Below, piece after piece: positions 7,773 through 62,782 of a stretch of 64,000 bases of DNA (position 1 is the first letter of the stretch; each line of letters opens with the position of its first letter). The position numbers and the translations under genes are program-made. The notes under the pieces were generated by a model. It saw only the letters and a program-made list of their open reading frames with translations, was not told where the DNA came from and made no database searches. Origin of the DNA: Dissulfuribacterales bacterium (lineage in GTDB: Bacteria > Desulfobacterota > Dissulfuribacteria > Dissulfuribacterales > DYLC01); NCBI GenBank assembly GCA_041287365.1, contig JBEULL010000018.1, forward strand, positions 240,908 to 304,907, read 5' to 3'.

Positions 7773-7797
7773 ATATACGGTCTCTTGAGGTAATAAT

Positions 7798-17199: not shown

Positions 17200-18048
17200 C
17201 TACTTTTCAAAAAAGAAGATTATATTGTCCACCTCCCGCTGAATGGAGCCCATTATCTCTTCCTGTTTGTCGATTATCGAAAACGGAAGCATGCTTCTCT
17301 TTTGGTCAGGTGTGAGATTTTTGTCCACAAGCGTATGCGCCCAGATCAGAAGCCGAGTCAGGCCGTTGGGAAATCGTCTCTTGTCCTTCATGTGGTGATT
17401 CGCTATGGCTGTAACCATCTCATTCGGCATAGACCAGCTTTTGGCCAGATATGCGCCTATATCGACGTGAGTTACCTTGAACCTGATACCTTCATACGCA
17501 AGGGCTCTGTCTCCGCCATTTACGGCATTCTTTGAGAACTCGGCCAGTTCAGCCTCTTTTTTCTCGTTTTTCAGATATTGCAGCAGAACGAGCTTGCCTA
17601 TGTCGTGTATAAGCCCTGTGGTAAAAGCACGAGCCATGGGTGTGATGAATATGTTCAGTTCTCGAAGCATAGTCTGCATGGCGTATGCCACCTGCAGACT
17701 ATGCTCCCAGATGTCGTATTCAACTGTCGAGAATGTCTTGCCAAAGGATTCCTGCAAGGATGACGCCACGATGATATCCAGCACCCTTCTGCTGCCCAGA
17801 ATGGAAACAGCCTGAAATACTGATTCAATCTCCTTGTTGAGACCATAGGCGGCAGCCCGAGTGGCATCAAGTAGCTTGGCGGACAACACAGGTTCAAAGC
17901 TGAGTTTTCTGGCCAGGTCCAGAAGAGAAAGGTCTTCAAGAGAGGTATTGGTCACTATTTCGAGCACATAAGGCGAAATGGGCTTGATATTTTTTATGGC
18001 AGTCTGTATTCCAATAGGTATGGAAGAATTTGATTGTTTTTGCTGCAT
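17200..18048 (-). CDS. HDOD-domain signalling protein (stand-alone)
   Basis: HDOD-like sequence (LSLLDLARKLSFEPVLSAKLL, AVSILG, GLIHDIGKLVLL, ANHH). Start moved to MQQKQ at 18048, which has GGGGA 8 nt upstream. Confidence 0.75.
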   Translation of the reverse strand: MQQKQSNSSIPIGIQTAIKNIKPISPYVLEIVTNTSLEDLSLLDLARKLSFEPVLSAKLLDATRAAAYGLNKEIESVFQAVSILGSRRVLDIIVASSLQESFGKTFSTVEYDIWEHSLQVAYAMQTMLRELNIFITPMARAFTTGLIHDIGKLVLLQYLKNEKKEAELAEFSKNAVNGGDRALAYEGIRFKVTHVDIGAYLAKSWSMPNEMVTAIANHHMKDKRRFPNGLTRLLIWAHTLVDKNLTPDQKRSMLPFSIIDKQEEIMGSIQREVDNIIFFFEK

Positions 18049-18136
18049 TGTGATTCCCCTATAAAAATTGATGGTATCGTAAAAAGTAGAGTATGGCTGC
18101 GGCAAAAACGCCGAATGCAAGGTGCACAAATTAATT

Positions 18137-21889: not shown

Positions 21890-23266
21890 CTATCCTATAG
21901 GCTCATACCAGAATGGCAGCAAAATGATGTAAGTGGCGCCCATGCCATAGACCAGGAGTTCGCACAGCCTGTGCCTGAGCGGGCTGACAAGCCCATAAAA
22001 ATCCCCATATACCAGCCGGTGCAGCACATGAAGGCCTGCCACCACACTGCTTATAACCAGAAACAGGTCCATGCCAGGATAAAACCAGGAAGGCACATGA
22101 AATTCCCAATGCGAGAGGTCAAATCCAAACTGTCTGCCCAAAGTCGGAAAAAAGAACTGAGACTCGTATACTGCATAGTTCAGACGACAGACCAGTTCGC
22201 CGGCAAAGGCCGTGGGTACGAACACCGGCACCATGGGAGAGAATTTGCCGAAGAGTTCGTCTTCTGTAGTGCCAAAGATGCGCGCCCCAAGTTTCAAAAA
22301 CAGCATGGCAATCACGAACCAGAAAAACAGCAGGGCGGAAAACATGAGCATTCTATACACCAGGGTCTCCGTTGCAGGCGTAAATGCCTTGAGAAGGCCA
22401 TAATCCATAAAACGAGCCAGCTGTGAGGCTATCAGCAGGGGGATGATATAAGAACAGGTGATGTAGCGACCTTTACTCGTAATCAACTCGGCAAACGGGC
22501 TTCTGAAATTGATACGTGGGGAATTTTTGTCACATAACGACACGCATCGACCGCAGATGAGGCAATCCAGGTTATTGACCACACCAAATGCGCCCAGATA
22601 CACAGGGCATCCACGCTGTCCGTCCCTACCCTTCTTGCATGCAAAGGTCTTGCATTCTCTGCAGATGTTGTGGTCAGGCCTGAACTCCGTCATGGACATG
22701 GTGGAGGCCACGCCTGTGATGCGTCCCATGGGGCAGAGATAGCGGCACCAGGCCTGAAGCGGGTACAATATGGAAAAAAACGTGGCGCCTCCCAAAATGG
22801 CCAGAATCAGCAAGGCCGTGGCTCGAGGAGACTCCTTTATGCCCATACTCTCTTCCAGCCAGATAATGACGGCAAACAAAAAGACCGCCCAATATATACC
22901 GTATTTTTGCAGCCAACTGGGAATAGGCCTGTATTTAACCCAGCCCAGACGCTGAAAGACCCTTCCAAGCCCGGGGAAAGGACAGAAACCACACCACATG
23001 CGCCCCACAAAAAACCAGCTCAAGACCATGCTGGGCCACCATAGACCCCATGAGAGAAAAATGACCACATTTTCTCGAGGATTTTGAGGGCCGAACAGAC
23101 CTGCCAGGATAATGAAGGCAAAGACCAGGTCGCCCACTGTCCTAATGGAGGCATGCAGTTTTCTGCGTTGCAGAACATGCTTGACGGCAGGAAAGACCTG
23201 AAACAGATTCATGCGCTCATTGGGATATTGATCGAAAAATATGCCTATAACACGCTTGAGTTGCAT
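21890..23266 (-). CDS. polytopic membrane 4Fe-4S-binding protein (NapH/MauN-like N-terminal half plus additional C-terminal TM helices)
   Basis: Multiple hydrophobic helices with the Cys motifs CGFCPFPG, CRYLCPMG, CRECKTFAC...CPV and CLICGRCVSLC. Start probably MQLKR at 23266. The stop lies only 2 nt from the convergent ftsY stop. Confidence 0.65.
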   Translation of the reverse strand: MQLKRVIGIFFDQYPNERMNLFQVFPAVKHVLQRRKLHASIRTVGDLVFAFIILAGLFGPQNPRENVVIFLSWGLWWPSMVLSWFFVGRMWCGFCPFPGLGRVFQRLGWVKYRPIPSWLQKYGIYWAVFLFAVIIWLEESMGIKESPRATALLILAILGGATFFSILYPLQAWCRYLCPMGRITGVASTMSMTEFRPDHNICRECKTFACKKGRDGQRGCPVYLGAFGVVNNLDCLICGRCVSLCDKNSPRINFRSPFAELITSKGRYITCSYIIPLLIASQLARFMDYGLLKAFTPATETLVYRMLMFSALLFFWFVIAMLFLKLGARIFGTTEDELFGKFSPMVPVFVPTAFAGELVCRLNYAVYESQFFFPTLGRQFGFDLSHWEFHVPSWFYPGMDLFLVISSVVAGLHVLHRLVYGDFYGLVSPLRHRLCELLVYGMGATYIILLPFWYEPIG

Positions 23267-23491
23267 CTTTCCCGCCCTGTTATCTATTGAAAATTCAAAA
23301 AAGTATAAATAAAATTCGTTCAATCAGGCTGTTCACACTTTTTGTGATTTTAAGCATAAACACCAAAACTTGTCCAGAAAATTTATCGAACGCAAAACTG
23401 AAGCAATGGCGATTTAACCTAAGCTTCAATTGACTTTTTGGGTTTTTGTAATAATAACGAACTTATTTCAAAAACAATAAACGGAATCAAT

Positions 23492-31857: not shown

Positions 31858-33213
31858 TCATTTTCCACGCCACCTCATCTTCTCCAGTTGAGTGGAAAGA
31901 AAATCGATCTCAGCCTTTAATTTCCCGCCGTCTTTAATAATTTGCTGCACCTGTTTGACCGCATGTATAACCGTGGCATGGTCCCTGCCGAATGTCTTGC
32001 CTATTATCTCGAGGGATTCACATGTATATTGCCTGGCCAGATACATGCCCAACTGCCGCGGCCACAGCACGCTTCTCTTTCTGCTTTTGGATGTGAGTTC
32101 AGCCGTAGTCAGTTTATAAAAACGACACAACATCTCCTGAATGGCCTGAATATTCAGGTCAAGGGGCTGCCCCACCATATCTCCAAGCACCTCCTGTGCC
32201 AATTGAAGCGTGACCTCTTGTTTCATCAAGGTGGTGCGAGTCAAAAGCCCCGCCACAGCCCCTTCCAGCCGCCTCACATCCCCGAACAGGCGTTCAGCCA
32301 GATAATCCAGCACAATGTCAGGCACAACAAGACCGTTTCTCAATGCCTTTACCGCCAATATGTTGCGTCTTGTTTGCTGATCGGGCTCATCTATATTGGC
32401 CATTATGGCGGCATTGAGACGGGAGCCCAGCCCTTCATGTAGATTTGCAAGCTGTACCGGAGGCTGATTGGCGGTCATGACAATGGTCTTTCCGCTCTCC
32501 ATGAGTGTGTCTATTATCAGAGACAGTTCTGCCTGCGTGCGCTGCCTTCCAGAGAGGCAATGCACCTCTTCCAATAACAGGATATCGCATTCCTGCTGAT
32601 ATTTCTGCTTAAAACCATCGAATTGTCCGTCCTTTGCAGCCCGCACCACCTGATTGGTCAATTCATTGGCGGAAAGATAGGCTATGCGCATGGACGGCCT
32701 GTTTTCAAGAATAAACTGGCCGGTAGCCTGAGACAGATGGCTTTTGCCAAGACCTGAAGGCGAATGCAGATACAGTATGTGTCCCTGGCTTATTTCACCG
32801 CTTGCAATGGCCTTGCAGACGTCATGGGCATATCTGTTACATTCTCCGACCACGAATTCATCGAATGAATAATGTCTGCTGAAACGCAGGGCCGCAGGTT
32901 TTCTGGGGTTGAAATCCGGTAAGATGGCCTGCTGTGCTTGATTTTCCGGCTGTTTCAGGAATGCCTCCGCAGAATTTTCCTTTTTATAATCACAGGTCAG
33001 ACGGATCATACGATTTTCGAGCTCAGGGCAGCGAGAGAGCAGAGGCAGATAGTGTTCCTGCACCCACGAGGCGAAAAAACGGTTGGGACATCCGAGAATC
33101 AGGGTGTCTTCCTTTACGTCCACTACCTGTATAGGTTCTATCCAGACCTCGAAGCTGCTTTCAGAAACATGGGAACGCAGATAGTCCTTGACAGTATTCC
33201 AGACACTCTTCAT
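31858..33213 (-). CDS. dnaA: chromosomal replication initiator protein DnaA
   Basis: N-terminus W..VKDYL...FEVWIEPI. AAA+ core with YSFDEFVVGECNRYAH, Walker A SPSGLGKSHL and LLLEEVH. Domain IV with FGRDHATVIHAVKQV. Confidence 0.9.
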   Translation of the reverse strand: MKSVWNTVKDYLRSHVSESSFEVWIEPIQVVDVKEDTLILGCPNRFFASWVQEHYLPLLSRCPELENRMIRLTCDYKKENSAEAFLKQPENQAQQAILPDFNPRKPAALRFSRHYSFDEFVVGECNRYAHDVCKAIASGEISQGHILYLHSPSGLGKSHLSQATGQFILENRPSMRIAYLSANELTNQVVRAAKDGQFDGFKQKYQQECDILLLEEVHCLSGRQRTQAELSLIIDTLMESGKTIVMTANQPPVQLANLHEGLGSRLNAAIMANIDEPDQQTRRNILAVKALRNGLVVPDIVLDYLAERLFGDVRRLEGAVAGLLTRTTLMKQEVTLQLAQEVLGDMVGQPLDLNIQAIQEMLCRFYKLTTAELTSKSRKRSVLWPRQLGMYLARQYTCESLEIIGKTFGRDHATVIHAVKQVQQIIKDGGKLKAEIDFLSTQLEKMRWRGK

Positions 33214-33530
33214 ATAGATATCTCTCCCATTTTCAAAACTTCCCTAAACGGCGTTCGCCGTCAGCATGAAGTCACTATGTCTTATTCAAAAATGATGCTT
33301 CAGATTCATACAAGACCGTCACTTAACTGTCAAACAATGGTGCTTGTTATAAAATCACTTATCAGAAAAAAAGAAACAGCACTGCAGAATAGGACATAAC
33401 GATTTGTTTTATTTAGCTATTTGAAATAGATTTTGATAACTTCCTAAAATCCAAGCCTTTTTTGTTAACAAAAAATCAAATAAATCAAGTTAGTTACAAT
33501 AGCATAATTTTTGGACAAGTTTTCAACATT

Positions 33531-33550
33531 CTATTTTCTCCTATTTTCTC
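33531..33550. repeat. tandem 10-mer CTATTTTCTC x2 inside the AT-rich dnaA-upstream spacer
   Basis: Read directly from the sequence. It is followed by ATTTTTTT. Confidence 0.6.
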
Positions 33551-33666
33551 ATTTTTTTGAAGTTTTTCTAGTTGTTATGTCTTAGCTCATTATTATTTTG
33601 CCCGTCTTTTAAAAACTCTTGCAAAACCCCTCTGTTATTTTCAAAGGGCCTTGCTATGATATAAAC

Positions 33667-37117: not shown

Positions 37118-37188
37118 ACACAATATTTGTTTGACTATATGTGGTGTCTTTGATATCTTAAATTTCAGGATATATTTGGAGACAAAAG

Positions 37189-37278
37189 ATGAAATCCATC
37201 GGATTGTTATACATATTTCTCTTTTTACTCTACACCGGCATTGAAGCAGTCGAGTCCAGGGATATCCACCTTACATAG
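37189..37278 (+). CDS. possible 29-aa hydrophobic micro-ORF (MKSIGLLYIFLFLLYTGIEAVESRDIHLT)
   Basis: ATG with GGAG about 9 nt upstream and one predicted TM-like stretch. There is no other support. Confidence 0.2.
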   Translation: MKSIGLLYIFLFLLYTGIEAVESRDIHLT

Positions 37279-37500
37279 GAGGATAGAGACCACCCTTACA
37301 GCGGCAGTAATAGGTTTAGCTTACTGGGACAGATGCACTATCATCAGAAAGGCGCGAATACGGCTGTATGCTAAATAGAAGACAAATGGCGGCTAAACGA
37401 GCTCGTAAAAGCGCTAAGGCACTTGCCCCGCAGCGCTAAGGCCTTGCAGCCCTGCTGAAGACATTTCATATACGTTAACTGCACTATACCAAAACACTCA

Positions 37501-38844
37501 ATGGAAGAGATTCGACTTGTACATATAGGTGACTGCCAAGTCACTAAAGACCCTGATACCATACTCGAGACATGTCTTGGCTCGTGTGTAGGCATAGCCA
37601 TATACGACGCAGTCAGGCGTGTCGGCGGCATGTGCCACATTCTGCTGCCTGATGGCCCTGCTGAAAAGAAACATGCCAATCCCACCGCCTATGCCACTAC
37701 AGCGGTTCCATTCCTGCTGAACGCCTTTGAAGAGCTGGGAGGCGAGAGAAAAACAGCCGTCACTGCCATTGCGGGCGGCGCATCCATAATGACAAAGCAT
37801 TCAGGCGCAGACCTCAAGATAGGTCAGCGGAATCTGCTCGCTGTAATGGAAGGCCTGAGACATGCAGGTATCAAGATTTCATATGAACACGTGGCAGGTA
37901 ATCTGGGGCGTGTGATGCGCCTGTATATGCGAAACGGCCAGATTCACGTTCGCACATCCAGAATGCCCACACCAGAAGAGGCAGGGAGGCAGATAAATGA
38001 AAAATGGAATGCCAACGCCTTGTGCGCCTCAATCCTGCAGGGCGCTGAAGACATCAGGCCCAGTTCCAATGTGGCCATTCGCGCCCTTCAACTCGCCAAT
38101 GGCGAGGACACCAGCATTATTGAACTGGAACAGCTCATTCTTCATGACCAGGTGCTGGCTGCCAACATACTCAAGGAGGCCAATTCCGCCTACTACGGAC
38201 TTTCCAGACAGGTACATACCATCTCTCAGGCCATCGCATACCTTGGCATGAGGACCTTCAAAAAAATAGTTATGGATACATGTCTTGCTGACATGTACGC
38301 CAGGTGTATAAATACCTATGATATGGAAGAAGGGGCGTTTTTCTATCACTCCGTTACATGTGCCCGCATAAGCGAGACTATAGCCAAAGTAACGGGTCGC
38401 GTGGAGCCGGAGACAGCGTATCTGGCCGGTCTGCTGCATGACATCGGCAAGATCGTGATCGAACGTTACGGTACAGATCTGTTCACACAGGTTACGAGCA
38501 GGGTGCTGTTGAAAAACGAATCCTTCGTGCAGGCCGAAAAAGACGTGTTCGGCCTGGACCATGCGGCCATAGGCCAGTATATCGCTCGAAACTGGCAACT
38601 TCCGATGGCACTGGAGGAGGCGATAGCATTTCATCATGAGCCCGAAAACATGAATGTAATCTCACCTCTTCCCTGTATAGTTCATATCGCTGACCACATC
38701 TGCAATATAGCCGGAATAGGACTTTCCAACGATTCCATGATCAACGGACTGAGCCAAAGGGCCATCACAGCCCTGGCCCTTGATGAAGGGGCGATAGAGG
38801 ACATCCTTTCCGCTGTCCCGCGCATAATCCATGCACACTCATAA
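37501..38844 (+). CDS. cheD: CheD (chemoreceptor glutamine deamidase) fused to a C-terminal HDOD domain
   Basis: Residues 1-~155 are CheD-like (VHIGDCQVTKDPDTILETCLGSCVGIAIYD, VGGMCHILLPDG, with catalytic Cys and His contexts). Residues ~190-447 are HDOD-like (LHDQVLAANILKEANSAYYG, AIAYLG, GLLHDIGKIVI, AFHHEP). Confidence 0.8.
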   Translation: MEEIRLVHIGDCQVTKDPDTILETCLGSCVGIAIYDAVRRVGGMCHILLPDGPAEKKHANPTAYATTAVPFLLNAFEELGGERKTAVTAIAGGASIMTKHSGADLKIGQRNLLAVMEGLRHAGIKISYEHVAGNLGRVMRLYMRNGQIHVRTSRMPTPEEAGRQINEKWNANALCASILQGAEDIRPSSNVAIRALQLANGEDTSIIELEQLILHDQVLAANILKEANSAYYGLSRQVHTISQAIAYLGMRTFKKIVMDTCLADMYARCINTYDMEEGAFFYHSVTCARISETIAKVTGRVEPETAYLAGLLHDIGKIVIERYGTDLFTQVTSRVLLKNESFVQAEKDVFGLDHAAIGQYIARNWQLPMALEEAIAFHHEPENMNVISPLPCIVHIADHICNIAGIGLSNDSMINGLSQRAITALALDEGAIEDILSAVPRIIHAHS

Positions 38845-38849
38845 CGGAC

Positions 38850-39713
38850 ATGGAACCTGATCGCATCAATCATCTTAAACATCTTGTAGAACAACGCACG
38901 GGTTGCAGGTTTTCCAGCTACAATCCAGGGACATTTCAAAGAAGGCTTTTGCGGCGCATGTCCGCCCTCGGCATACACGACATAGACGCTTACGAGGCCT
39001 ATTTGCAAAAAAATCCTTCTGAATACCAGACACTTCTTCACTCCCTCACCATAAAGGTCAGCGAATTTTTCAGGGACACCGAGATTTTCAATCACATCGA
39101 ACAGCATATCATACCTGAAATCTTTGAAAGACACGCCCAGCAAAACGATCGCAACATCCGTATCTGGAGCACTGCCTGCGCCTATGGAGAGGAGGTGTAT
39201 TCCACAGCCATTCTGCTCTTTGAATACCTTCAGCGTATGGAGGAGCAGGAAAGAAAAAAATGGAATATCACACTACTGGGCACGGATATAGACCAAATGG
39301 CCGTAGAAAAGGCCAGGGAAGCCGTTTATAACATCAAATCCATGGAAGATGTTATCTCAGCACACCCAAACGCCTTTCAGCGCATCATCGGTATGCCTGA
39401 ACACATACAGGTCATTCCAGAGATTCAGGCCATGGCGCAGTTTGTATGTTTCGATATCACCACAGTGAAATATCTTGCACCACCCGTCGGCATCTTCACC
39501 GAGTACGACATCATCTATTGCAGAAACGTGCTCATCTATTATGATTATCAGCAGAAATTCGATACACTGCACAGACTTTATGAATGCCTGAATCCAGACG
39601 GTTATCTGGTGCTGGGGAAAGCGGAAAGCATGCCGGATGAACTTTTGAAATGCCTTGTCCCTGTGAAACATGGAATAAAAATCTATAAAAAAGGATTGGC
39701 TGCACATGGATAA
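38850..39713 (+). CDS. cheR: CheR-type protein-glutamate O-methyltransferase
   Basis: N-terminal helical domain (FQRRLLRRM, TIKVSEFFRD) and SAM-binding domain (IRIWSTACAYGEEVYS, DIIYCRNVLIYY). Starts 5 nt after cheD-HDOD. Confidence 0.85.
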   Translation: MEPDRINHLKHLVEQRTGCRFSSYNPGTFQRRLLRRMSALGIHDIDAYEAYLQKNPSEYQTLLHSLTIKVSEFFRDTEIFNHIEQHIIPEIFERHAQQNDRNIRIWSTACAYGEEVYSTAILLFEYLQRMEEQERKKWNITLLGTDIDQMAVEKAREAVYNIKSMEDVISAHPNAFQRIIGMPEHIQVIPEIQAMAQFVCFDITTVKYLAPPVGIFTEYDIIYCRNVLIYYDYQQKFDTLHRLYECLNPDGYLVLGKAESMPDELLKCLVPVKHGIKIYKKGLAAHG

Positions 39714-42525
39714 CAGCCCATTTCAGATATACGACGACCATGTTCTTGCCTATGAAGCGGTTTATCAGCTCTACATGCGCGCACCCACACCCATTCGCAT
39801 GATGGACATAAACTGTCATGTGCTCACTCAGAATCCTGCCATGGATGCCATGGTGGATATGAGCAATCCGGAAAGCCTTGGTAAAAAATGTTTTGAGATC
39901 ACTCATGCAGCGGGCTTATGCCACACGGAAAACTGCCCTCTTCGGCAGATAGCCTGCGGAGAGAACAAAAATCTCCTTTTGTTCTATGAATGTGAACTCT
40001 GGAATGGAACACAATTTCCGGCCAGAGTCATTTCATCGCCCTTCTACGATCAGAACGGCCATCTGGCTGGCATAGTGCAGACCATTCAAGACGACAGCCA
40101 TTATGTGGCCATGGCAAACGCCCTTGAACGAAAAAATCAGGAACTGGCCGCCAACTATCAGACACTGGAAAATCACTATAAGATCATAAGGCTTCTTCAC
40201 GAGGCCAATGAACTTTCAGAAATGGCACAGCGGCTTTTAACTATTCTCATCGAAAATACATCATCTGCAACGGGTGTGTTTTATATATGGAACCATAAGC
40301 GTGAAGTTCTGACCCCTCTGGCCTCTTACGCCTTATTCACAAATCCGCCTGAATTTAGCATGGGCCAGGGCATGCCAGGTCAGGCCGCCCAGTCAAAACA
40401 CACCCTTCTGCTGCAGAATCTGCCGGCTGACCATCTCAAGCTGAAAACCGGCGCCATGGATGCACAGCCATTCTCCATCATCTGTATTCCAATGTTTCTG
40501 CAGGACAAACTACTGGGAGTAATGGAGCTGGGCTCCTTCAACGACCTCTCCCTTCATAAGGACTATCTGGAAAACATACTGCCTCAGACCTGTCTTGCCA
40601 TTCAGAACGCCCTTAACACACAGGAGATTCTTCAACTCTCCAACACCATGAAGCAGCAAAACGAACAACTGAACGCCCAGAACGAGGAATTGCAGGCGCA
40701 GAGCGAAGAACTGCTGGCGCAAAGCGAAGAGATTCAGGCCCAGACAGAGGAACTCATGGCTCAGAGGGACGCCCTGGAAAAGAAGACCAAGGAGGCCGAA
40801 GAGGCCAATCGCATGAAGTCTATATTTCTCTCCAACATGTCCCACGAGCTGCGCACACCTCTCAATTCCATTCTCGGTCTGGCTCGTCTCATGCTGGACG
40901 ACTATCAGGTCACGCAGGACCAGCGTCACAAGGAATACCTGAATATCATACTCAGAAACGGCGAAAATCTGCTGGAGCTTATAAACGATATCCTGGACCT
41001 CACACGCATCGAATCAGGTAGAGAAGAGATGCGCTTCACTCCGGTCAAAACCAGAGACCTCATAGAAAAGCTGGGGCTTTCCATGGCTCCATTGGCCCAG
41101 AAAAAGGAACTCGCCTTTGAAATACAGACGGACGAAGCGCCTGAAACCATCGTGACAGACCAGCGGAGGCTCAACCAAATACTGACAAATCTCCTGGGGA
41201 ATGCCGTCAAATTCACGGAAAAAGGCAAAATAACCCTGAAATGCACGAAAAAAACAGCGGAAGATAGGGATTATATCGTCTTTTCGGTGATAGATACAGG
41301 CATAGGCATTCCCAAGGGATATGAAAAACTCATCTTCGAGCCCTTCAAACAGGTGGACGGATCATATACACGCAAATACGGCGGAACAGGACTCGGACTG
41401 AGCATATCACAGAAACTGGCTCAGATGCTGGGAGGTGAGATATCCGTCTTCAGTGAACTGGGCAAAGGCAGCAGCTTTACACTCACACTGCCTGTGGACA
41501 GACGCAGCAAGAACAGATTGCCCGACGAGGTCTGGAAAAAACGACTGAAGGCAGCCCTGCTGCCCAATATAAACAAATCGTCTGCAACACCTTCCACCAC
41601 TCCTGATACTACGAATGCAACAAAGGCAACGACTGCTCCAATCCCTTCTGGAGCGGACGTTTCATCTCTGCAGACTGCAAAAACCACTGAACGGCCTGTA
41701 ACATCGGCCATCACAAAGGACACGAACGGCCAAAGAATCTTACTGGTGGACGATGATATGCTGGTACTGAAGGAATTGGGGACTCGGCTCAAGTCATACG
41801 GCTATGAGGTATCCTATGCATTTGACGGCAATCTGGGGCTGAAACTCCTTTTGGATGAAAAACCAGGGCTTGTCCTGCTAGATCTTACCATGCCGGTCAT
41901 GGACGGATTTTCGTTCCTGCACGAGATGCAGAAACTGCCGGATGTATCTGAAATCCCTGTGATAATCCTGAGTGCGGCGGACATAGACAGTGATATGGAA
42001 AAACTGTTTCCGCCAAACGTCAAGGGTGTTTTGCAAAAAGGCAACATAAAGAGTCAGGAACTCATGACCTTCCTACAGAATACATTGTGCAGCGATGAAA
42101 AGCAGACAGAGGCGAACAAATCAGCCGATGATCCGGTAACGACTGACTGCAAACAAAACAGTAAAAAGATATTGATCGCTGAAGACAATCCAGACAATAT
42201 GTTTTTATTAAAAGAACTCTTGACGCCAAGAGGTTATATGGTGTTACATGCCGTAAACGGCAATGAGGCGGTGCAGATGGCTATGACTCAGCGGCCTGAT
42301 CTCATTCTCATGGACATTCAAATGCCGGAACTGAATGGACTGGACGCCACAAAGGCCATAAGAGAAAACGGCCTCAAGACCCCCATTATCGCCCTGACGG
42401 CAAAGGCCATGAAGGGCGACCGTGAACAGATTATAGAGGCCGGGTGTAATGATTATATATCCAAACCATTCACTCCAAATTCTCTTCTGCGCACTATCAG
42501 TTACTGGTTGAACCTAGAGCAATAA
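39706..42525 (+). CDS. hybrid sensor histidine kinase: Cys-rich PAS, GAF, heptad-repeat coiled coil, HisKA, HATPase, T/S/P-rich linker and two receivers
   Basis: H-box [11 protein letters not shown] boxes [26 protein letters not shown]1 LLVDDDM...DLTMPVMDG and REC2 [10 protein letters not shown]...[10 protein letters not shown]...LTAKA. Its ATG overlaps the cheR stop by 8 nt. Confidence 0.85.
40675..40764 (+). repeat. in-frame 21-nt periodic coding repeat (heptads AQNEELQ / AQSEELL / AQSEEIQ / AQTEELM / AQ)
   Basis: The units gcccagaacgaggaattgcag, gcgcagagcgaagaactgctg, gcgcaaagcgaagagattcag and gcccagacagaggaactcatg were read directly. Codon 324 of the kinase starts at 40675. Confidence 0.9.
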
Positions 42526-42541
42526 AAACACAGGACAAGAA

Positions 42542-43744
42542 ATGGAAAGTATTCTTACACCCTCGCTATCTAATATCAATACCGCCCAAAAGCGCCCCTG
42601 TATTCTGGTGGTGGAAGACCAACCGGACAATCTGTTTATTCTAAAAGAGGTGCTGGAACGCGGCAACTTTCAGGTCATAACAGCGAGAACCGGCGAAGAG
42701 GCCCTGGAAAAGATTCGCAATTCACGCGAAGAGATAGATCTCGTACTCTCCGACATCATGATGCCAGGCATCTCCGGCATAATGCTCTGCGAGACCATCA
42801 AGACGGATGTTGCCTCATCCCATATACCGGTGATGCTCATCACGTCCCTTTGTCTGGACGAAAAAGACGAAATCAAAGGCCGTGAGGCAGGCGCGGAGGA
42901 TTATCTTACCCGTCCCATCAACCCTGATCTGCTGCTTAAACGCATCAAGCGAATCCTGGAAACCAAAAAGACTATAGACTTCTGGAAGGGGGCCTATGAA
43001 GAAAAGGATCAGGCCCTGACCTCTCAGGAATGGAGCACCCGCATGCTAATCCATGACCTCAAAAACCCGCTTACAGGTGCAAGCGGTTATCTGACCCTTC
43101 TGGCCATGGACCCTGACATCACACCCAAACAGCGCAATCTCATTCAGAAGATACAGGTGGCATTACAACAGCAGACGGAGATGCTTCAGGACATGCTTTC
43201 CCTGGCCGCAGCCAAATTCGGCAGGCTCAGCCTGGAAAAGGAAACCTTTTCCCTTTGTGATGTATTGAAGGAAAACGTCTTTATGCAGCAAGGAGCGGCC
43301 ATGCAAAAGGGCATGGCCCTGCACACAGAGATATCGAAAGGCGCATGTATGGTCAAGGCGGACCGCAGACTCATAAAACGCGTCATAGCCAATCTGATCA
43401 TGAATTCCATCAAATATGGAGAACCGAACACTCCCATAGAGATACATCTGGGCGAGCAAAATGACAATCCATTCCTGCGGCGCCTGCCAGCGAACGATCA
43501 TATCTGGTTCAGCATCTCCAATGAGGCGCCTGTAATATCTCAAGAAGATCAGAGACGTATCTTCAAGCCCTTTGAACAGCAGCATGCCGGATCCGAGCAA
43601 AAATACGGACTCAAGGGCGCCGGCCTTGGCCTATGTTTCTGCCATGAGATCATAAAACTCCACGACGGCGAATTAGGCGTCATTTCACCTGTTCCAGGCC
43701 GGGACTCGGGCGTGGTCTTTTATTTCAGCCTTCCAAGGACATAA
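42542..43744 (+). CDS. response-regulator / histidine-kinase fusion (N-terminal REC, HisKA, HATPase)
   Basis: REC (ILVVEDQPDN...SDIMMPGISG...TS). H-box-like IHDLKNPLT. ATPase region (NLIMNSIKYG, GAGLGLCF). Confidence 0.8.
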   Translation: MESILTPSLSNINTAQKRPCILVVEDQPDNLFILKEVLERGNFQVITARTGEEALEKIRNSREEIDLVLSDIMMPGISGIMLCETIKTDVASSHIPVMLITSLCLDEKDEIKGREAGAEDYLTRPINPDLLLKRIKRILETKKTIDFWKGAYEEKDQALTSQEWSTRMLIHDLKNPLTGASGYLTLLAMDPDITPKQRNLIQKIQVALQQQTEMLQDMLSLAAAKFGRLSLEKETFSLCDVLKENVFMQQGAAMQKGMALHTEISKGACMVKADRRLIKRVIANLIMNSIKYGEPNTPIEIHLGEQNDNPFLRRLPANDHIWFSISNEAPVISQEDQRRIFKPFEQQHAGSEQKYGLKGAGLGLCFCHEIIKLHDGELGVISPVPGRDSGVVFYFSLPRT

Positions 43745-43759
43745 TTCCTCAACCCATCA

Positions 43760-45106
43760 GTGATGCTCAAAAGCCGGTTCAACCCATCCCAGATACTACT
43801 GTTGGGCTTTACAACCATCATCGGAGTAGGTGCCATTCTTCTTAAATTGCCGATTTCCACTCGACACGGTATCTCAACTGTGGATGCCCTTTTTACTGCA
43901 ACCTCTGCTGTCTGTGTCACTGGACTTATAGTCAAGAACACGCCTGTAGACTTCACTCTGTTTGGCCAGATAGTGATACTGCTGCTCATTCAGATAGGCG
44001 GCCTCGGATACATGACCTCCACCACCCTGATTTTTTTGATGATGGGAAAGAAAATCGACATCAAAGACCGTTTTCTCCTAAAGGAATCCATGAATCTCAT
44101 AAGCATGGAAGGCGTGGTCAAATTCGTAAAGCATGTGCTGACCGTTACCTTAATCATAGAACTTCGTGTACTTCTACTCTCTTTTTGCTTTCTACCCTAC
44201 ATGCCTTGGCGAAAAGCAGTTTATTACGGCCTATTCCATTCCATATCCGCCTTCAACAACGCCGGATTCAGCCTATTTCCCGACAATTTAATGAAATTCA
44301 AAACAAGTATGAGCATAAATCTGATTATCTCGCTGCTCATCATTGCAGGTGGAATAGGCTTTTTAGTGCTATGGGAACTCAAAAACAGATGGAATCTTCG
44401 AGCAAAGGACAGAGAACTGCTCTCCATGCACGCCAAAACCGTTTTGGGCACCACCGGCCTGCTGATTCTCGCCGGCGCTGTGCTGATTCTGCTTTTCGAA
44501 CGCAATAATCCAGACTCCATGGCCGGCCTTTCTCTGCCGTATCAATTTCTTGCCGCATTTTTTGCTTCAATTACGGCGCGAACCGCTGGTTTCAACACAT
44601 TGGACTATGCCTCCCTTACACCGGAGACTCTATTTCTCACCATAGTTCTTATGTTCATAGGCGCCTCTCCTGGTGGCACAGGTGGAGGTGTCAAGACCAC
44701 CACTATTGCCGTGGTGCTGACAAGCATGTTCGCCACCATTCGAGGAGAGGAACAGACAGTACTCTTCAAAAGGGCTGTTCCTTCAAGTGTTATCTCAAAA
44801 TCCATGCTTATAGTGGTACTGGGGGCCATCTTTGTAATCGTTGCATCTATCTTGATTCTGCACTTTGAAAACAGCCGCTACCTTTCCATTCTCTTTGAAG
44901 TGACATCGGCCATAGGCACTGTGGGACTTTCCGTGGGGGATGGAGGTGTGCGCAGCCTTTCGGCCACATTTTCTCCACTTGGAAAAATGATAATCTCATT
45001 TATCATGCTTGCAGGTAGAATCGGACCCTTGACACTTGCATGCGCCTTTTTTGAACAAAAAGGCAAACGATATCGATATCCGAAAGGAAGGATTGCCATA
45101 GGATGA
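43760..45106 (+). CDS. TrkH/KtrB-family potassium transporter membrane subunit
   Basis: Polytopic protein with repeated selectivity-filter-like motifs (TGL, IGGLG, NAGF, TAGF, GGTGGG, GTVGLS). Starts 15 nt after the REC-kinase gene. Confidence 0.85.
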   Translation: MMLKSRFNPSQILLLGFTTIIGVGAILLKLPISTRHGISTVDALFTATSAVCVTGLIVKNTPVDFTLFGQIVILLLIQIGGLGYMTSTTLIFLMMGKKIDIKDRFLLKESMNLISMEGVVKFVKHVLTVTLIIELRVLLLSFCFLPYMPWRKAVYYGLFHSISAFNNAGFSLFPDNLMKFKTSMSINLIISLLIIAGGIGFLVLWELKNRWNLRAKDRELLSMHAKTVLGTTGLLILAGAVLILLFERNNPDSMAGLSLPYQFLAAFFASITARTAGFNTLDYASLTPETLFLTIVLMFIGASPGGTGGGVKTTTIAVVLTSMFATIRGEEQTVLFKRAVPSSVISKSMLIVVLGAIFVIVASILILHFENSRYLSILFEVTSAIGTVGLSVGDGGVRSLSATFSPLGKMIISFIMLAGRIGPLTLACAFFEQKGKRYRYPKGRIAIG

Positions 45107-45771
45107 AAAAACAATACGCAGTCATCGGGTTGGGGCGTTTCGGTTATTCCGTTGCAAAGACCCTGACAGAACTCGGTGAAGACGTGATTGCCATAGACAA
45201 CAACGAGGAGCGAGTGCGAAAGATAGCCGATTTTGTAACCGAATCGGTGGTGATGGACGCCCTGGATGAAAAGGCATTGCGCTCCATCGGTTTACAGAAC
45301 GTGGATGTGGCCGTAGTCAGCATCGGTGAAAATATAGAGGCCAGCATTTTAGTAGTAATGATTCTCAAGGAGATGGGTGTGCAAAACATCATAGCCAAGG
45401 CGGTCACATCCCTGCATGGCAAGGTGCTCGAAAATTTGAACGTAACTCGCATCGTATATCCTGAAAGAGACATGGCCGTGCGTGTAGCACAGCAACTGGC
45501 CAGGCCCACCATTTTGGAACACTTGGAACTTTCTCCTGAATACAGTATCATCGAGATTCCAGCCCCTTCCTTTGTAGCCGGCCGCATGCTGAGAGACACT
45601 GGGCTGCGCAACAAATATGGCATAAACCTCATAGCGATTCGTCGCAGGAAATCAGAGACTGGCCTCACTGAATGGAATGTCAATCCGGCGCCAACAGACA
45701 TCATTCAACCTGAGGACATTCTGGTGGTCATAGGCTCCAATACCGATCTGGAGCGGCTGAACAACGCCTGA
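45103..45771 (+). CDS. TrkA/KtrA-family K+ uptake regulatory subunit (RCK N- and C-domains)
   Basis: Rossmann motif VIGLGRFG followed by a TrkA-C-like C-terminus. ATGA overlap with the membrane subunit gene. Confidence 0.85.
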   Translation: MKKQYAVIGLGRFGYSVAKTLTELGEDVIAIDNNEERVRKIADFVTESVVMDALDEKALRSIGLQNVDVAVVSIGENIEASILVVMILKEMGVQNIIAKAVTSLHGKVLENLNVTRIVYPERDMAVRVAQQLARPTILEHLELSPEYSIIEIPAPSFVAGRMLRDTGLRNKYGINLIAIRRRKSETGLTEWNVNPAPTDIIQPEDILVVIGSNTDLERLNNA

Positions 45772-49387: not shown

Positions 49388-50175
49388 CCGTCAAAAAACG
49401 TCTGGATGTACTGGTGGTAGAGCGAGGTATTGCAGACTCTCGAGCAAAGGCGCAGGCCATAATCACGGCTGGTCAAATACAAGTAAACGGCCAAATCCTG
49501 GACAAATGCGGTCAGCAGGTGCCGGAGAATGCAGAGATATGTCTTTTAAGCAATCCATGTCCTTATGTGAGCAGAGGCGGATTGAAACTGGCGCACGCCC
49601 TGTCGTGTTTTCAAATAAATGTCAGGGGAATGGTCTGCATGGATGTGGGCGCATCCACAGGCGGCTTTACGGACTGTCTGCTGCAATACGGGGCAATGCT
49701 GGTGTATGCAGTGGATGTGGGCTACGGCCAACTGGATTGGAAACTCCGAAACGACAGCCGAGTGGTGGTATTGGAAAAACAGAACATCCGTAACATAGAC
49801 CACACATCGATTCCGGAACCCATAGACCTGCTGGTGATGGACGTCTCCTTCATCTCCTTGAAAACGGCTCTGCCACCTGCCCTGCCCTTTCTCAAACCCT
49901 GCGGAGCCGTGATCGCACTGATCAAGCCGCAATTCGAGGCAGGCAGAGAACAGGTGGGAAAGGGAGGTGTGATCAGGGATGCAAAGGTACGGGAGGAAGT
50001 GGTACAGGGGCTTCGGACATTTTTCAGTCAGGAACTGAAGCTGGAGATAGCTGGTCTGGTTGCATCACCCATTCATGGGGCGAAGGGCAACGAAGAGTAT
50101 CTGATCTATATGAAAATTAATGGAGGATACAAGGAGCATGGGAGAACGGAAGTCGAGTTGGAGGGAAATCGATAA
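49384..50175 (+). CDS. tlyA: TlyA-family rRNA (cytidine-2'-O)-methyltransferase
   Basis: S4-like N-terminus (RLDVLVVERGIADSRAKAQAII), YVSRGGLKL, DVGASTGGFTD, LIKPQFEAG. Confidence 0.85.
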   Translation: MTVKKRLDVLVVERGIADSRAKAQAIITAGQIQVNGQILDKCGQQVPENAEICLLSNPCPYVSRGGLKLAHALSCFQINVRGMVCMDVGASTGGFTDCLLQYGAMLVYAVDVGYGQLDWKLRNDSRVVVLEKQNIRNIDHTSIPEPIDLLVMDVSFISLKTALPPALPFLKPCGAVIALIKPQFEAGREQVGKGGVIRDAKVREEVVQGLRTFFSQELKLEIAGLVASPIHGAKGNEEYLIYMKINGGYKEHGRTEVELEGNR

Positions 50176-50608
50176 ACGCAAGAACAAGTCCGGTTCTTCG
50201 AGTAAAGGGATGAAGAGCCGTTTGGAAAAGGCTCTGGAAAATCCTGCCCTGAAGAAATATTACCTTCAGGAGGTGGAAAAGCTCTTCAGCGGTTCAAAGG
50301 ATGCAGAAAAAGAACGCAGCCTGACAGCGCTTCGAGAACTGTACGGCAGCGCTGCCTTTGAGGAGACAGCCTTGAAATATCACGAACTTTACGGCCTGCC
50401 ACAGGATTGGAGCGGGCTTTTGATGTTTCTGGACCTCAAGGACCAATCGGAAATCGTCACCAAGGCCATGGAACTCCTTGTAGGCATGGCAGCCGAGAGA
50501 AATACACTAGAACGCAACAATCTCAAGGCCAAACTCCGATTTCTGGGCATGACCACAGAGGATACCGACATTCGAGACAAGGCCAACGAATACCTCAAGA
50601 CCATGTGA
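50138..50608 (+). CDS. hypothetical protein with a lysine/serine-rich N-terminus
   Basis: The ORF is co-directional and sits tightly between tlyA and xerD. I recognise no motif. The start is ambiguous (50120, 50138 or 50210), and the first two options overlap tlyA. Confidence 0.45.
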   Translation: MGERKSSWREIDKRKNKSGSSSKGMKSRLEKALENPALKKYYLQEVEKLFSGSKDAEKERSLTALRELYGSAAFEETALKYHELYGLPQDWSGLLMFLDLKDQSEIVTKAMELLVGMAAERNTLERNNLKAKLRFLGMTTEDTDIRDKANEYLKTM

Positions 50609-50614
50609 ACTCCC

Positions 50615-51535
50615 ATGGATTCCACAATAAAATCCGATACAAACACTTGGTTCAGACTCATAGACGACTTTATAGCCCATCTTCGCATTGAAAAAGGGCT
50701 TTCCGGCAATACCAGTGAGGCCTACGCCACAGACTTGAACTTCTTTGTAACTTATGTGACGGATATCGGCATTTACGAACCGGCTGAACTCACACTCACA
50801 GCCATCCTCTCTTGGCTCGTCAGGCAAAAGACGCAAGGCATGCACGCCCGCACCATCTCCAGACGTCTCTCCAGTCTGAGGTCATTTTTCAATTTTCTAC
50901 GTCTTGAACGCATAGTCACATCCAATCCAGTCACCACCATTCAAAATCCGAAGATAGGCCTGTATCTACCGGATGTCCTGAGCGTGGAAGAGGTGGAAAG
51001 GCTTCTGAACGCACCGAATACCAATACTCACCTCGGCATGCGTGACAGGGCTATTCTGGAACTCACCTATGCCTGCGGTCTTCGGGCATCCGAGGCCGTA
51101 ACTTTGAAACTCCATCAGATAGACATGAATTTGGCCTACCTACGCGTCATAGGAAAAGGAAACAAGGAGAGGGTCACCCCCATTGGGGATGTGGCCGTTG
51201 AGATATTGAAGGAATATCTACTGAAGGCCAGACCGCAATTTCTAAGGACAGCGGGCAGTGAATTCCTGTTTCCCAGCCGGAACGGACGGCCTCTCACCCG
51301 CCAGCGCTTCTGGCAGATATTAAAGACTCATGCGTTACAGGCAGGGCTGAAGTCTGAGCTATCCCCTCACTCCCTTCGCCACTCCTTTGCCACGCACCTG
51401 CTGGAAGGCGGGGCCGATCTGCGCGTTGTGCAGATGCTTTTGGGCCATTCCAGCATCACCACCACACAGATATACACACATCTCGACCTGCAACACCTGC
51501 GTGAGGTGCACAAGCGATTCCATCCCAGGGCATAG
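50615..51535 (+). CDS. xerD: tyrosine recombinase XerD/XerC family (XerD-like)
   Basis: N-terminal SAM-like domain (FIAHLRIEKGLSGNTSEAYATDL) and catalytic region (RDRAILELTYACGLRASE, HSLRHSFATHLLEGGADLRVVQMLLGHSSITTTQIYTH). Confidence 0.85.
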   Translation: MDSTIKSDTNTWFRLIDDFIAHLRIEKGLSGNTSEAYATDLNFFVTYVTDIGIYEPAELTLTAILSWLVRQKTQGMHARTISRRLSSLRSFFNFLRLERIVTSNPVTTIQNPKIGLYLPDVLSVEEVERLLNAPNTNTHLGMRDRAILELTYACGLRASEAVTLKLHQIDMNLAYLRVIGKGNKERVTPIGDVAVEILKEYLLKARPQFLRTAGSEFLFPSRNGRPLTRQRFWQILKTHALQAGLKSELSPHSLRHSFATHLLEGGADLRVVQMLLGHSSITTTQIYTHLDLQHLREVHKRFHPRA

Positions 51536-58506: not shown

Positions 58507-60966
58507 TTACCTCACACCTTTTTCCGCCAGAAACGGCCCGTATTTTTTGTCTGTAATGCAGATATGGTTCTGCAGCCAGTTCTTGAGAAAATTCAGCAGC
58601 TCCAAATCCACTGTGGCGTAACCTTTCTCGAACTTCTCCTTGAAGGCAAGCACCTTTTGCACCAGGTCTGCGTGAATGGCCTTGTGGGCATCGGTGTCTG
58701 GATAGCCGTGCTTGTCGAAATAATCCTCTTCAGTCTTGAAATGAAAGACCGTGTATTCCGCCAGTTCATTCAAGACCTTGGCTGCGGCATCCTTTCCTAT
58801 GCCTTGCTTTATACCGGCATAAATGGTGTTCACCATGGCCACCAGCTTCTTGTGCTGTTCGTCTATGGAAGGAATGCCCACACTCAAATTCGGACTCCAC
58901 GGCATGAATTCAGCGGATTGTGAAGGGTTATGTAACTGCCTCTCCGCCTGCGGCTGTGCTGAAGATGTGCGCCTTCTTGAGGTGGGTTCGGCCTTCATAC
59001 CCTGTAATGCATGACCTCCTGCGCCTTCACTGCCATTTTTTGGGTCTTCAAGAATAGTCAACAATGAATGTAACAAAGAGATAGTCTGCTGGAAAAATGG
59101 GTCTATCTGGTTTTTGAAATAATCCAACATACGATCCCGTTCACCCGCCGCGATCATGCGCTGCAACTCCACAACATTGCGATGCATGGAGTCATGCACG
59201 GGCTGCAATTTCAATATTACATCCGCTATGCGAGAAGATGCAGGCTTATAACCGTCCAGAAAACGTCCAAGGCCACAGCGATGAGGATCGGTCTCCACCT
59301 CAAAGGGCACAAACTCGATCACGCCTGCAATTACCTTATCCCTCCACTGCATGTGCTGGTAAATAACGGCCTTTATACGGGCGCTGTCCGCCAGGCTTGC
59401 AAGCAATGAGGAAAGCAGACTCGGCTCCACTTTGATCTGAGACATCAACACAGCGGTCTCTGCTACAACGCTTTCCATACCATAGGCATTGGCCTCTATC
59501 TCCCTGCGCATTCTCGAGAAACGAGAGGCCTGTTCCAAAAGCACCTCAGAGTCCTTCATCACACTTCTGGCGCCTTCAGCGGCCCTTTCGATATTGTGTG
59601 TGATTTCAGAGACAGTGGCGGTCTGTTCCTCCGTAGCGCTGGCAATGGTGCTAGCCAGGTCATTCACCTCGCTTACAGCCTGTGTAATACGCTCCACTGA
59701 ATCCACTGCGTGCTGAGTATCGGCTTGTATCGTGGTGATCATACGGGTGATCTCCTCCGTGGCCCCTGCCGTCTGCTTGGCCAGTTCCTTCACCTCATTG
59801 GCCACTACCGCAAAACCCTTGCCTGCCTCACCTGCACGAGCGGCCTCGATGGTGGCATTCAGGGCCAAAAGATTGGTCTGAGATGCTATGTTGTTGATAA
59901 CTCGAATGATATCACCGATCTTTTCTGAACTTGTGGACAGGCTCTGAATAGCCGACTGCGCCTCGGCGGTCTGAGTCTGGGCGTCGTTGGCCTTCTGCGC
60001 TGTAATTGCCACGCTGTGCGCTATCTCATTGGTGGCGGTGGACATATCCTTGGTGGCCTGAGCGATGGTCTCGAGGTTGCTGGAGGAGGTCTGGGCCGAC
60101 TGCTTCACCTTATGAGAGACGGCCAGGATCTCATCCGCATATTGAATAAGCCGGTCTTTATTTTTATTGAGAATAGAGGCCACGCTCTCCACCACTGCAT
60201 TTTGGGCATTCATGGTGTTGAACTGTCCGATCATGGTGGAGGAAAGGGCGTTACACGCAGATGCAAGACGCTGCACCTCCGAAGGCCCTTCTACGGGCAG
60301 ACAGGTCTGAAACCTACCCTGACCTGCCTCCTGAATGGCGATCACTACCCTTTCCAGAGAGGCGATCATGAAACGCCTTACAAAAAAGGTGACCAAAATA
60401 ATGAAACATATACCACCTGCAAGAGTGACATACTGAAAATATTGGGCGTATCGGTCTTTTTGAAGAGAAGATGCCTCAAATGCCTTGGTCACTGCATCCG
60501 CCTGCTTAAAAAGGGTACCGTTGGTCTCGTTCATGGCTGAAACTGCCTTTTTTACATCTTCCGCATTTGGCTTTTCATTTAGAACAACAGCGATATGGGC
60601 TGAAAACGGCTTCCACAGCCCTTCCAGTTTATTGAGCTCGGAAAACAATGCCTCATCAGTCACAGCAGATAACCCCAGTTCTGAACTGCCGTTTTTGAGC
60701 CCTTGTAACGATTTTTCAAAGAGCTGCGAGGCATTCTTCAGTTCGTTCAGGTGTGAGGCATCGCCTGTTACCATGTAGGCATTGGCGGCCTTGGTCATCT
60801 TTTGAGAGAGCATGCGCTCACGGCCAGCTATGTTTATGGCTATGGTATCCGAGCCATGTAGATAAATGAGAAAAAAATTGAGGGAAACGGTGACAATAGT
60901 GGCCACAAACATGATGGCCACCAGGGCCGGGACCAGAAATGAAATAGAGTAAAAACGCCTGAGCAT
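58507..60966 (-). CDS. methyl-accepting chemotaxis protein with N-terminal PilJ/NarX-type sensor, HAMP, MA domain, CZB-like module and C-terminal hemerythrin domain
   Basis: [16 protein letters not shown] (nitrate/PilJ-type P-box), MA hairpin region ([37 protein letters not shown]). CZB-like H..W...[11 protein letters not shown]...HDSMH at nt 59053-59382. Hemerythrin-type ligand residues ([15 protein letters not shown]...H, WL.NHI..D) at nt 58510-58911. Confidence 0.9.
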
Positions 60967-61604: not shown

Positions 61605-61605
61605 T

Positions 61606-61839
61606 TCATTCCTCCTTTGTGGAAACGATGGCATCCAATGCCTGAATATCCGCTGGGGCATCGGCCGCCAATCTGTTCTGTTCCTGAATACGAAGATAAA
61701 TCTCGTGTCTCAAAATAGATGTATTGGATGGAGCGATTATTCCCAACTTCACCTGGTTGTTTCGAATCTCCAGCACCTTGATCTCTATGTCATCACCTAT
61801 GCAAATCTTTTCCTCTACCTTTCGTGTCAATATCAGCAT
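61606..61839 (-). CDS. csrA: carbon storage regulator CsrA (FliW-partnered type)
   Basis: [37 protein letters not shown]...ILRHEIY. Confidence 0.9.
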
Positions 61840-61866
61840 GGCAGCCTCCCTGCTTCCATTATGGTC

Positions 61867-62766: not shown

Positions 62767-62782
62767 GTTAATTCACCTCCTG

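Follow-up and report, generated by a model that had tools for sequence, protein, structure and literature searches.

Reversible glutamate methylation is the textbook form of sensory adaptation and is tied to chemoreceptor arrays, in which [ASTG]-x-x-[EQ]-[EQ]-x-x-[ASTG] is the consensus both for methylation and for recognition by CheD. In Thermotoga maritima (TM0903, PDB 2F9Z) and Bacillus subtilis, CheD has a dedicated partner encoded next to it, CheC. HDOD, the second domain considered here, is represented among solved structures by 3HC1 of Geobacter sulfurreducens, a single-domain protein of unknown function in which two iron ions are coordinated by five His and one Asp (PMC12075610), and by SadB of Pseudomonas aeruginosa (9QZK), a Lon adaptor for AmrZ whose occluded pocket is devoid of three of the His ligands (PMC12075610). 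In a 64,000-nucleotide stretch from a Dissulfuribacterales bacterium (assembly GCA_041287365.1, contig JBEULL010000018.1, positions 240,908 to 304,907 of the forward strand; hereafter, the window), we analysed a gene (cheD-HDOD, 37501..38844, + strand) whose product joins a CheD and an HDOD domain in a single polypeptide. This is the first gene of an operon that also encodes CheR and two histidine kinases, and we propose that CheR and CheD-HDOD reversibly modify glutamates in the tandem heptads of the HisKA hybrid kinase, with HDOD as a regulatory or tethering module; we regard the chances of this proposal as evenly balanced.

The cheD-HDOD gene starts with ATG and is an uninterrupted open reading frame (ORF) of 447 amino acids (aa), and it is practically certain that its product consists of CheD and HDOD. 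The original prediction, which was based on a few motifs, held that a complete CheD with its Cys and His contexts is followed by a linker and a complete HDOD, and this was borne out throughout. The motifs TCLGSCVGIAIYD (residues 24-36), GGMCHILLPDG (42-52), LLHDIGKIVI (311-320) and AFHHEP (376-381) are all present, and a profile-HMM scan placed the two halves far above the Pfam gathering thresholds: 79.4 bits for CheD (PF03975; cut-off 25, E = 2.7e-22, residues 48-152) and 178.1 bits for HDOD (PF08668; cut-off 22.9, E = 1.9e-52, residues 189-381), with an additional HD match of 60.5 bits over residues 281-402. NCBIfam models of the whole ~160-aa CheD align with residues 3-155, so the N-terminal domain (residues 1-155, 37501..37965, +) is a complete CheD. 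The best of these equivalog models (NF010015, NF041119 and others) reached 118.5 bits against a cut-off of 251, all cut-offs being at least 223; with scores this far below the cut-offs, the domain must be taken as a divergent CheD and should not be named a canonical deamidase of methyl-accepting chemotaxis proteins (MCPs).

Solved structures led to the same assignment. In a sequence search of the PDB, the best CheD match was T. maritima 2f9z_C (E = 1.4e-20, residues 5-151) and the best HDOD match was G. sulfurreducens 3hc1 (E = 9e-33, residues 174-414). An AlphaFold2 model of the full-length protein alone, built from 117 relatives, had a mean predicted local distance difference test (pLDDT) of 88.2 and a predicted TM score (pTM) of 0.75. 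Its CheD half, with pLDDT mostly above 90, superimposes on 2f9z_C in Foldseek with a TM score of 0.88 and a root-mean-square deviation of 1.8 Å over 153 columns; its C-terminal half is all-helical and matches 3hc1, 3p3q, 3m1t, 1vqr and 9qzk. The two domains are connected by a linker of residues 156-170 (37966..38010, +; pLDDT 72-76), which varies in length and is mostly gapped across the family, and HDOD occupies residues ~171-447 (38011..38841, +), with the Pfam core at 189-381. We also considered an HD-GYP phosphodiesterase of cyclic di-GMP and rejected it, given that FHHEPENMNVISPLP contains no GYP after the HHE motif and Pfam identifies only HDOD and HD.

The catalytic Cys-His pair of CheD and the metal-ligand set of HDOD are retained. 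According to the alignment with 2f9z_C, Cys29 (codon 37585..37587, +) corresponds to the catalytic nucleophile Cys27 of T. maritima CheD and His46 (37636..37638, +) to His44; both are invariant in the 120 of 120 relatives listed. In T. maritima CheD, Thr21 is reported to complete the catalytic residues as the third of them (Chao et al. 2006), and this position aligns with Glu23 of the window protein. Within the subfamily to which the window protein belongs (P0001-P0049), Glu23 is kept in 46 of 49 members and the following Thr24 in 47 of 49; a more distant fused subfamily has [Gln/Lys/Glu]-Ala at these two positions. Where, in other lineages, CheD is encoded by a gene of its own ahead of HDOD, the canonical Thr is present. 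In HDOD, the codons aligned with the di-metal ligands of 3hc1 span 38347..38637 (+) and correspond to His283 (38347-49), His313-Asp314 (38437-42), His354 (38560-62) and His378-His379 (38632-37). His283, His313, Asp314, His354 and His378, together with Lys317 and Glu346, are invariant among the 120 relatives listed, and His379 is kept in 114 of them. The complete set of five His and one Asp is identical in 3hc1; since these ligands are also kept in the family, the fused HDOD very probably binds a di-metal centre.

Downstream of cheD-HDOD, and after only 5 nt, lies cheR (38850..39713, +; 287 aa; Pfam CheR_N and CheR), which overlaps by 8 nt with the gene of a 939-aa hybrid histidine kinase (39706..42525, +) composed, according to Pfam, of PAS-like, GAF, HisKA, HATPase, REC and REC domains. 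Following a 16-nt gap, a 400-aa REC-HisKA-HATPase kinase (42542..43744, +; Pfam) is the last conserved gene of the module. The block of cheD-HDOD, cheR, GAF hybrid kinase and REC-kinase was found at 11 loci from Thermodesulfobacteriota, a Nitrospiria metagenome-assembled genome (MAG), a contig labelled Anaerolineae and the cultured Thermosulfuriphilus ammonigenes. These loci include Ca. Desulfofervidus auxilii (L001-L003, 38% identity), L004 (35%), a Syntrophobacteraceae locus (L008), L073, L074, T. ammonigenes (L077) and the Nitrospiria MAG (L007), and a metagenome scan with the CheD-HDOD protein added three close loci with the same synteny (L080-L082). The hybrid kinase follows cheR in L001, L004, L007, L008, L073, L074, L077 and L080-82, and the REC-kinase follows the hybrid kinase in L001, L073, L074, L077, L081 and L082; an HTH_17-REC gene lies upstream in L001 and L074. 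In every locus examined cheR is immediately upstream of the kinase. The same adjacency of cheR and a related kinase was seen in Geopsychrobacter electrodiphilus (L078), which has no CheD-HDOD gene before cheR, and on a Gemmatimonadota contig (L079) whose upstream sequence is limited to 267 nt.

None of cheA, cheW, cheB and cheC was found in the 64-kb window, and at all 11 syntenic loci the conserved block is free of genes for MCP, CheA, CheW and CheB. The original prediction named CheC and MCPs as the partners of CheD in the well-studied systems; the conserved partners of the window subfamily are CheR and the hybrid HisKA kinase, not CheC or an adjacent MCP. Compared with the window CheR, the operon-type CheRs scored 155-220 bits and those of MCP clusters 77-97 bits, and judged by this sequence similarity the operon CheRs form a group of their own, apart from the CheRs of MCP clusters. 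The ~380-bp leader (37118-37500) contained no Rfam family (best E 0.19) and no terminator-like site, and it gave 3 promoter-like matches where 1.5 were expected. At the other end, trkH and trkA for K+ uptake (43760-45771) start 15 nt after the REC-kinase gene as if they were co-transcribed, an arrangement that is not conserved in related loci. Two of these loci have an ORF of 78-82 aa with only the HisKA (dimerization and histidine phosphotransfer, DHp) domain between the hybrid kinase and the REC-kinase (L001 13447-13683, L074 12955-13203); this ORF is absent from the window.

The evidence that points to the hybrid kinase as the substrate lies between its GAF and HisKA domains, where residues 324-352 (40675..40761, +) form four tandem heptads, each of which fits [ASTG]xx[EQ][EQ]xx[ASTG]. 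The phospho-acceptor His380 (codon 40843..40845, +) follows in the H-box SHELRTP, which is invariant in the alignment, and in five orthologues the heptads begin exactly 55 residues before the H-box. The orthologous kinases of L001, L004, L007 and L008 have 3-4 consensus units each, and the other two kinases of the window show one isolated consensus match each. As a control, we examined 77 loci, which together provided 3682 ORFs with a length of 100 aa or more and a total of 840,288 residues; at least three tandem units were present in only nine of these ORFs, seven cheR-adjacent kinases and two MCPs. Among 120 kinase homologues, 81 contain three or more tandem units, and anchoring the alignment on the H-box yielded the heptad consensus A-Q-[N/S]-E-E-L-Q, in which 104-118 of the 120 retain the Glu-Glu pairs and only 1-3 have Gln at these positions. 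In an AlphaFold2 model of kinase residues 160-620 (pLDDT 85), a single unbroken helix (281-398) runs through the heptads and His380; in the register that we infer, with Asn at a and Leu at d, the Glu-Glu pairs would occupy the exposed b and c positions. Pfam recognized the GAF, HisKA, HATPase and REC domains and no MCPsignal domain in this protein, which is therefore not an MCP. A search of a large protein database with the 103-aa coiled-coil/H-box region returned short HisKA fragments only and was uninformative on CheB/CheR-fused kinases.

The N-terminus of the same kinase (39706-40185, residues 1-160) is PAS-like and includes the Cys motif GKKC62-x9-C72-xTxx-C77-P, followed by YEC95ELW. By inspection, most of the 31 closest homologues retain the first three Cys, one of them with a shorter spacing; within the stretch compared, the YEC motif was seen only in the closest homologues. 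This motif may form a sensing site of the metal or Fe-S type.

From these elements we envisage that CheR would methylate the exposed Glu-Glu pairs of the signalling coiled coil, altering its charge and packing and thus the on/off balance of the kinase, as occurs in chemoreceptors. The CheD domain would then hydrolyse the methyl esters or deamidate the occasional Gln; given that the candidate sites are encoded as Glu-Glu, ester hydrolysis rather than deamidation is the expected reaction, and the name given to Thermotoga CheD in NCBIfam NF041119 is 'glutamine deamidase/glutamate methylesterase'. Together, CheR and CheD would act reversibly on the HisKA kinase itself and thereby provide feedback or adaptation, with no requirement for MCP, CheA, CheW or CheB. 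HDOD would take the place of the receiver domain of CheB, or of CheC, by tethering or gating the hydrolase, and its cue could be sensing through the metal centre or the binding of a receiver domain, perhaps phosphorylated, of which the operon encodes three. The complete version of this proposal, a chemoreceptor-independent adaptation in which CheR and a metal- or redox-gated CheD-HDOD reversibly methylate the kinase coiled coil, is one that we hold tentatively, as possible but short of an even chance.

The fusion itself is far from restricted to the window. An identical protein is present in a Dissulfuribacterales MAG (P0001, large protein database), and the search for the CheD-HDOD architecture, which the original prediction had suggested, returned at least 120 clusters at 90% identity, in several lineages and down to 27% identity to the query, from NCBI, JGI, ENA and Logan assemblies. 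CheD, HDOD and HD were detected in all 120 clusters listed, with a median length of 447 aa. Their source names are 'HDOD domain-containing protein' or 'putative nucleotidyltransferase with HDIG domain' and, once, 'HDOD protein/CheD'. An exhaustive phmmer search of 1.84 billion representatives at 50% identity found both domains in 68 of the best 150 matches, the rest of these being stand-alone HDOD proteins of ~285 aa. Full-length matches are present in Thermodesulfobacteriota, including the cultured T. ammonigenes (L077), as well as in Nitrospiria, Bacteriovoracaceae, KSB1 and a contig labelled Anaerolineae. CheD-HDOD is thus a sizeable family that had already been sequenced and is annotated only generically, rather than a one-off oddity.

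In other lineages the two domains are encoded separately and side by side. In L015, L024, L025, L026, L031 and L039, an HDOD gene of ~288 aa begins before the preceding CheD gene of ~160 aa has ended; the overlap is 4 nt in L015, L024-26 and L039, and in all six the pair is preceded by CheR and followed by a receiver gene. Pfam annotation of two of these loci revealed complete chemosensory clusters: the KSB1 locus L039 (1537-11734) reads CheA, CheW, MCP, two unknown ORFs, CheR, CheB, CheD, HDOD and CheY, and L024 (5619-16642) reads CheA, CheX, CheY, CheR, CheD, HDOD, REC and CheB, followed by an MCP. The two ORFs between MCP and CheR in L039 (177 and 185 aa) have no Pfam family. In the Nitrospiria MAG L007 (10440-10490), CheD and HDOD are in frame and split by a TGA, with an ATG 3 nt later, which could be a genuine split, a read-through site or a sequencing error. 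Domains that are found fused, split by a stop or translationally coupled provide classical evidence of a functional partnership. The idea put forward in the original prediction, that HDOD gates the activity or the targeting of CheD, is consistent with this recurrent pairing and with the invariant set of putative metal ligands. A Desulfomonilia contig (L040, 285-2495) carries HDOD, CheR and REC in a row with no recognizable CheD, which suggests that HDOD can be linked to the methylation machinery independently of CheD.

These split genes bear on another explanation, namely that a frameshift introduced by sequencing or assembly joined two genes artificially. The domains are indeed two separate genes in some lineages, with the in-frame TGA of L007 and the 4-nt overlaps just described. 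However, the ORF of the window is continuous, the same fused architecture and length recur across four independent data sources in no fewer than 120 clusters, more than two fifths of the best 150 representatives at 50% identity (the 68 mentioned above) are fused, and an isolate genome carries the fused gene. Such conservation across independent assemblies and a cultured isolate rules out an artefact caused by a frameshift or a stop, and we assign it a negligible probability.

The more distant fused proteins are encoded in other surroundings. A second subfamily (30-32% identity, without the conserved Thr) shows the order pyrF (- strand), cheD-HDOD, selA, TPR, hemC and hemD in L005, L075 and L076, where the cheD-HDOD gene lies at 8001-9353 or 7001-8368 and overlaps selA by 4 nt in L075 and L076; other distant members are isolated genes. 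In the searchable literature we found no paper that contains both CheD and HDOD and no description of an operon of CheR, CheD-HDOD and a heptad-containing kinase. The architecture as such is already in the databases and has gone unremarked there. The nearest related statement is that the alpha-group che clusters of Geobacter contain stand-alone HD-domain genes (PMC2577667).

Several considerations weigh against the kinase as the substrate of CheR and CheD-HDOD. We know of no HisKA kinase for which methylation by CheR has been demonstrated. The heptad, with a polar Asn at a, Leu at d and acidic b and c positions, could be that of a plain signalling-helix coiled coil that fits a loose four-position consensus by chance. 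The third catalytic position of CheD is altered, with Glu23 in place of Thr21 and Thr24 replaced by Ala in the other subfamily. The more distant fused members (~30% identity) are without che or kinase neighbours, several of them adjoining selA and heme-synthesis genes, and occurrence in such unrelated contexts means that the substrate of the family need not be the hybrid kinase. At least one ordinary MCP bearing a consensus site is encoded in the same genome, 20 kb downstream. Finally, the role given to HDOD is pure inference, and the only HDOD protein whose mechanism has been defined, SadB, serves as an adaptor in proteolysis and does so independently of a ligand (PMC12075610).

The MCP of the window (58507-60966, -) has an unusual architecture of PilJ, HAMP, MCPsignal, a CZB zinc-binding domain and a C-terminal hemerythrin, with one consensus methylation site, SATEEQTA, at residue 443. 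It could be a target in a conventional scheme, in which CheD-HDOD deamidates or demethylates ordinary MCPs encoded elsewhere, CheR acts on them likewise, and the kinases are co-transcribed regulators of a chemotaxis-like pathway. This would accommodate the canonical site of this MCP together with the flagellar genes of the window, the split CheD and HDOD pairs within complete MCP/CheA clusters, and an MCP gene at the edge of locus L074. Nevertheless, the absence of MCP, CheA, CheW and CheB from the conserved block of the 11 syntenic loci, the fact that the only conserved neighbours are CheR and kinases with 3-4 tandem consensus sites, and the separate grouping of the operon CheRs all speak against such a scheme, and we consider it unlikely, although it deserves to be kept in mind. 

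Two further alternatives shift the weight from CheD to HDOD. HDOD might be the active partner, either as a metal-dependent phosphohydrolase or as a CheC-like protein that binds or acts on phosphorylated receivers, with CheD serving mainly to bind the kinase helix as it binds CheC. The retention of every metal ligand together with the invariant Lys317 and Glu346, the gene order CheD, HDOD, REC in the split clusters, the three receiver domains encoded in the operon, and the CheD-less row of HDOD, CheR and REC in L040 agree with this possibility; however, the Cys and His of CheD are likewise invariant, which argues for retained catalysis, and we know of no HD-family enzyme that dephosphorylates receiver domains and, to our knowledge, no activity has been shown for any HDOD. 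We therefore judge it improbable. It is also conceivable that CheD-HDOD is a non-catalytic adaptor like SadB, which brings a client to a protease or another partner, the che-like neighbours reflecting regulation only. SadB is laid out in the same way, an enzyme-like N-terminal domain of ~150 aa preceding HDOD, and does not depend on ligand binding; its structure, 9qzk, is among the Foldseek matches of the model, and distant members of the family reside in housekeeping contexts. But SadB has lost three His ligands whereas the CheD-HDOD family keeps all of them, and the catalytic Cys and His are invariant across sequences that are only 26-30% identical, making an adaptor function quite improbable. 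Modification of the kinase heptads by CheR and CheD-HDOD remains the reading that we prefer.

If this preferred reading is correct, adaptation by glutamate methylation would extend to ordinary two-component signalling, and two poorly understood elements, HDOD and a CheD outside the CheC/MCP context, would each acquire a testable task. In its complete, chemoreceptor-independent version, the proposal would also provide an ordinary two-component system with a memory and adaptation so far known only for MCP-CheA arrays, and HDOD with its first defined regulatory role in such a circuit. The presence of the operon in the cultured T. ammonigenes makes the hypothesis directly testable. Should the kinase turn out not to be the substrate, HDOD is still marked as a partner of CheD by their recurrent pairing.

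The remaining features of the window are as follows. The original prediction mentioned a second, stand-alone HDOD gene ending at 18048; the gene is indeed present (Pfam HDOD 130.9 bits), but that end corresponds to an internal start, and the longest ORF (17200..18129, -, 309 aa) reaches 18129. Its product is 29% identical to the fused HDOD and keeps the H, HD, H and HH motifs. Next to this gene are genes for a nitronate monooxygenase-like protein and for an AAA+ ATPase of the MgsA type, but none of the che type. The region that follows the MCP gene (61155-63961) codes for FliW, for a member of the flagellin family and for a protein with flagellar domains of the hook/rod type. A tyrosine recombinase gene (50615-51535) is directly followed by an ORF, extending to 52164, whose match to the ammonium transporter profile is confined to the C-terminal half (positions 216-399 of 399); this ORF may be a truncated or disrupted gene. 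The dnaA gene (31858-33213, -) is separated from the next gene by a non-coding gap of ~400 nt (31858-33618 including dnaA), near which the chromosomal origin may be located. Two ORFs, 21890-23323 (-, 477 aa) and 50120-50608 (+, 162 aa), have no significant Pfam family, the former showing only a sub-threshold Fer4_5 match.

Compared with the known systems, the CheD domain of the window shares with the CheD proteins of T. maritima and B. subtilis the fold, the Cys-His pair in LGSC and HxxLP contexts and a CheR neighbour. It differs from these canonical proteins in its fusion to HDOD, in the Glu at the position of Thr21 and in scores below the equivalog cut-offs; furthermore, its conserved block includes neither CheC nor an MCP, and its presumed target is a HisKA kinase. 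The pairing with HDOD, fused or overlapping, recalls that of CheC and CheD, in which CheD also has a partner of its own; however, HDOD is an all-helical domain of the HD superfamily that is unrelated to CheC, and neither a substrate-mimic helix nor a phosphatase activity is known for it. With CheB, the protein shares the logic of a receptor-modifying hydrolase that is covalently linked to a signalling domain and has CheR as its counterpart, but the catalytic folds are unrelated (CheB is a Ser hydrolase and CheD a Cys hydrolase), the two domains come in the reverse order, and HDOD stands in place of REC. CheB-CheR-PAS histidine kinase fusions, as annotated in databases, also link methylation enzymes to a HisKA kinase and probably contain similar 'NEEL' heptads; these fusions use CheB instead of CheD-HDOD and are single polypeptides. 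The kinase sites resemble the methylation helices of MCPs in fitting the consensus four times in tandem, and such runs were otherwise seen only in the MCPs of the control set; in contrast with MCPs, they are located on a two-helix signalling coiled coil upstream of DHp and not on a four-helix bundle, and they almost never contain Gln. On the side of HDOD, 3HC1 is the solved structure with the best sequence match, and SadB and Maqu_0641 (3MEM) are alike in having an enzyme-like N-terminal domain of ~150 residues, a C-terminal HDOD and ~450 aa in total, although the N-terminal domain of SadB is YbaK-like and not CheD. By analogy, then, CheD-HDOD would be CheB-like in its logic, similar to CheC-CheD in its partnership and SadB-like in its layout.

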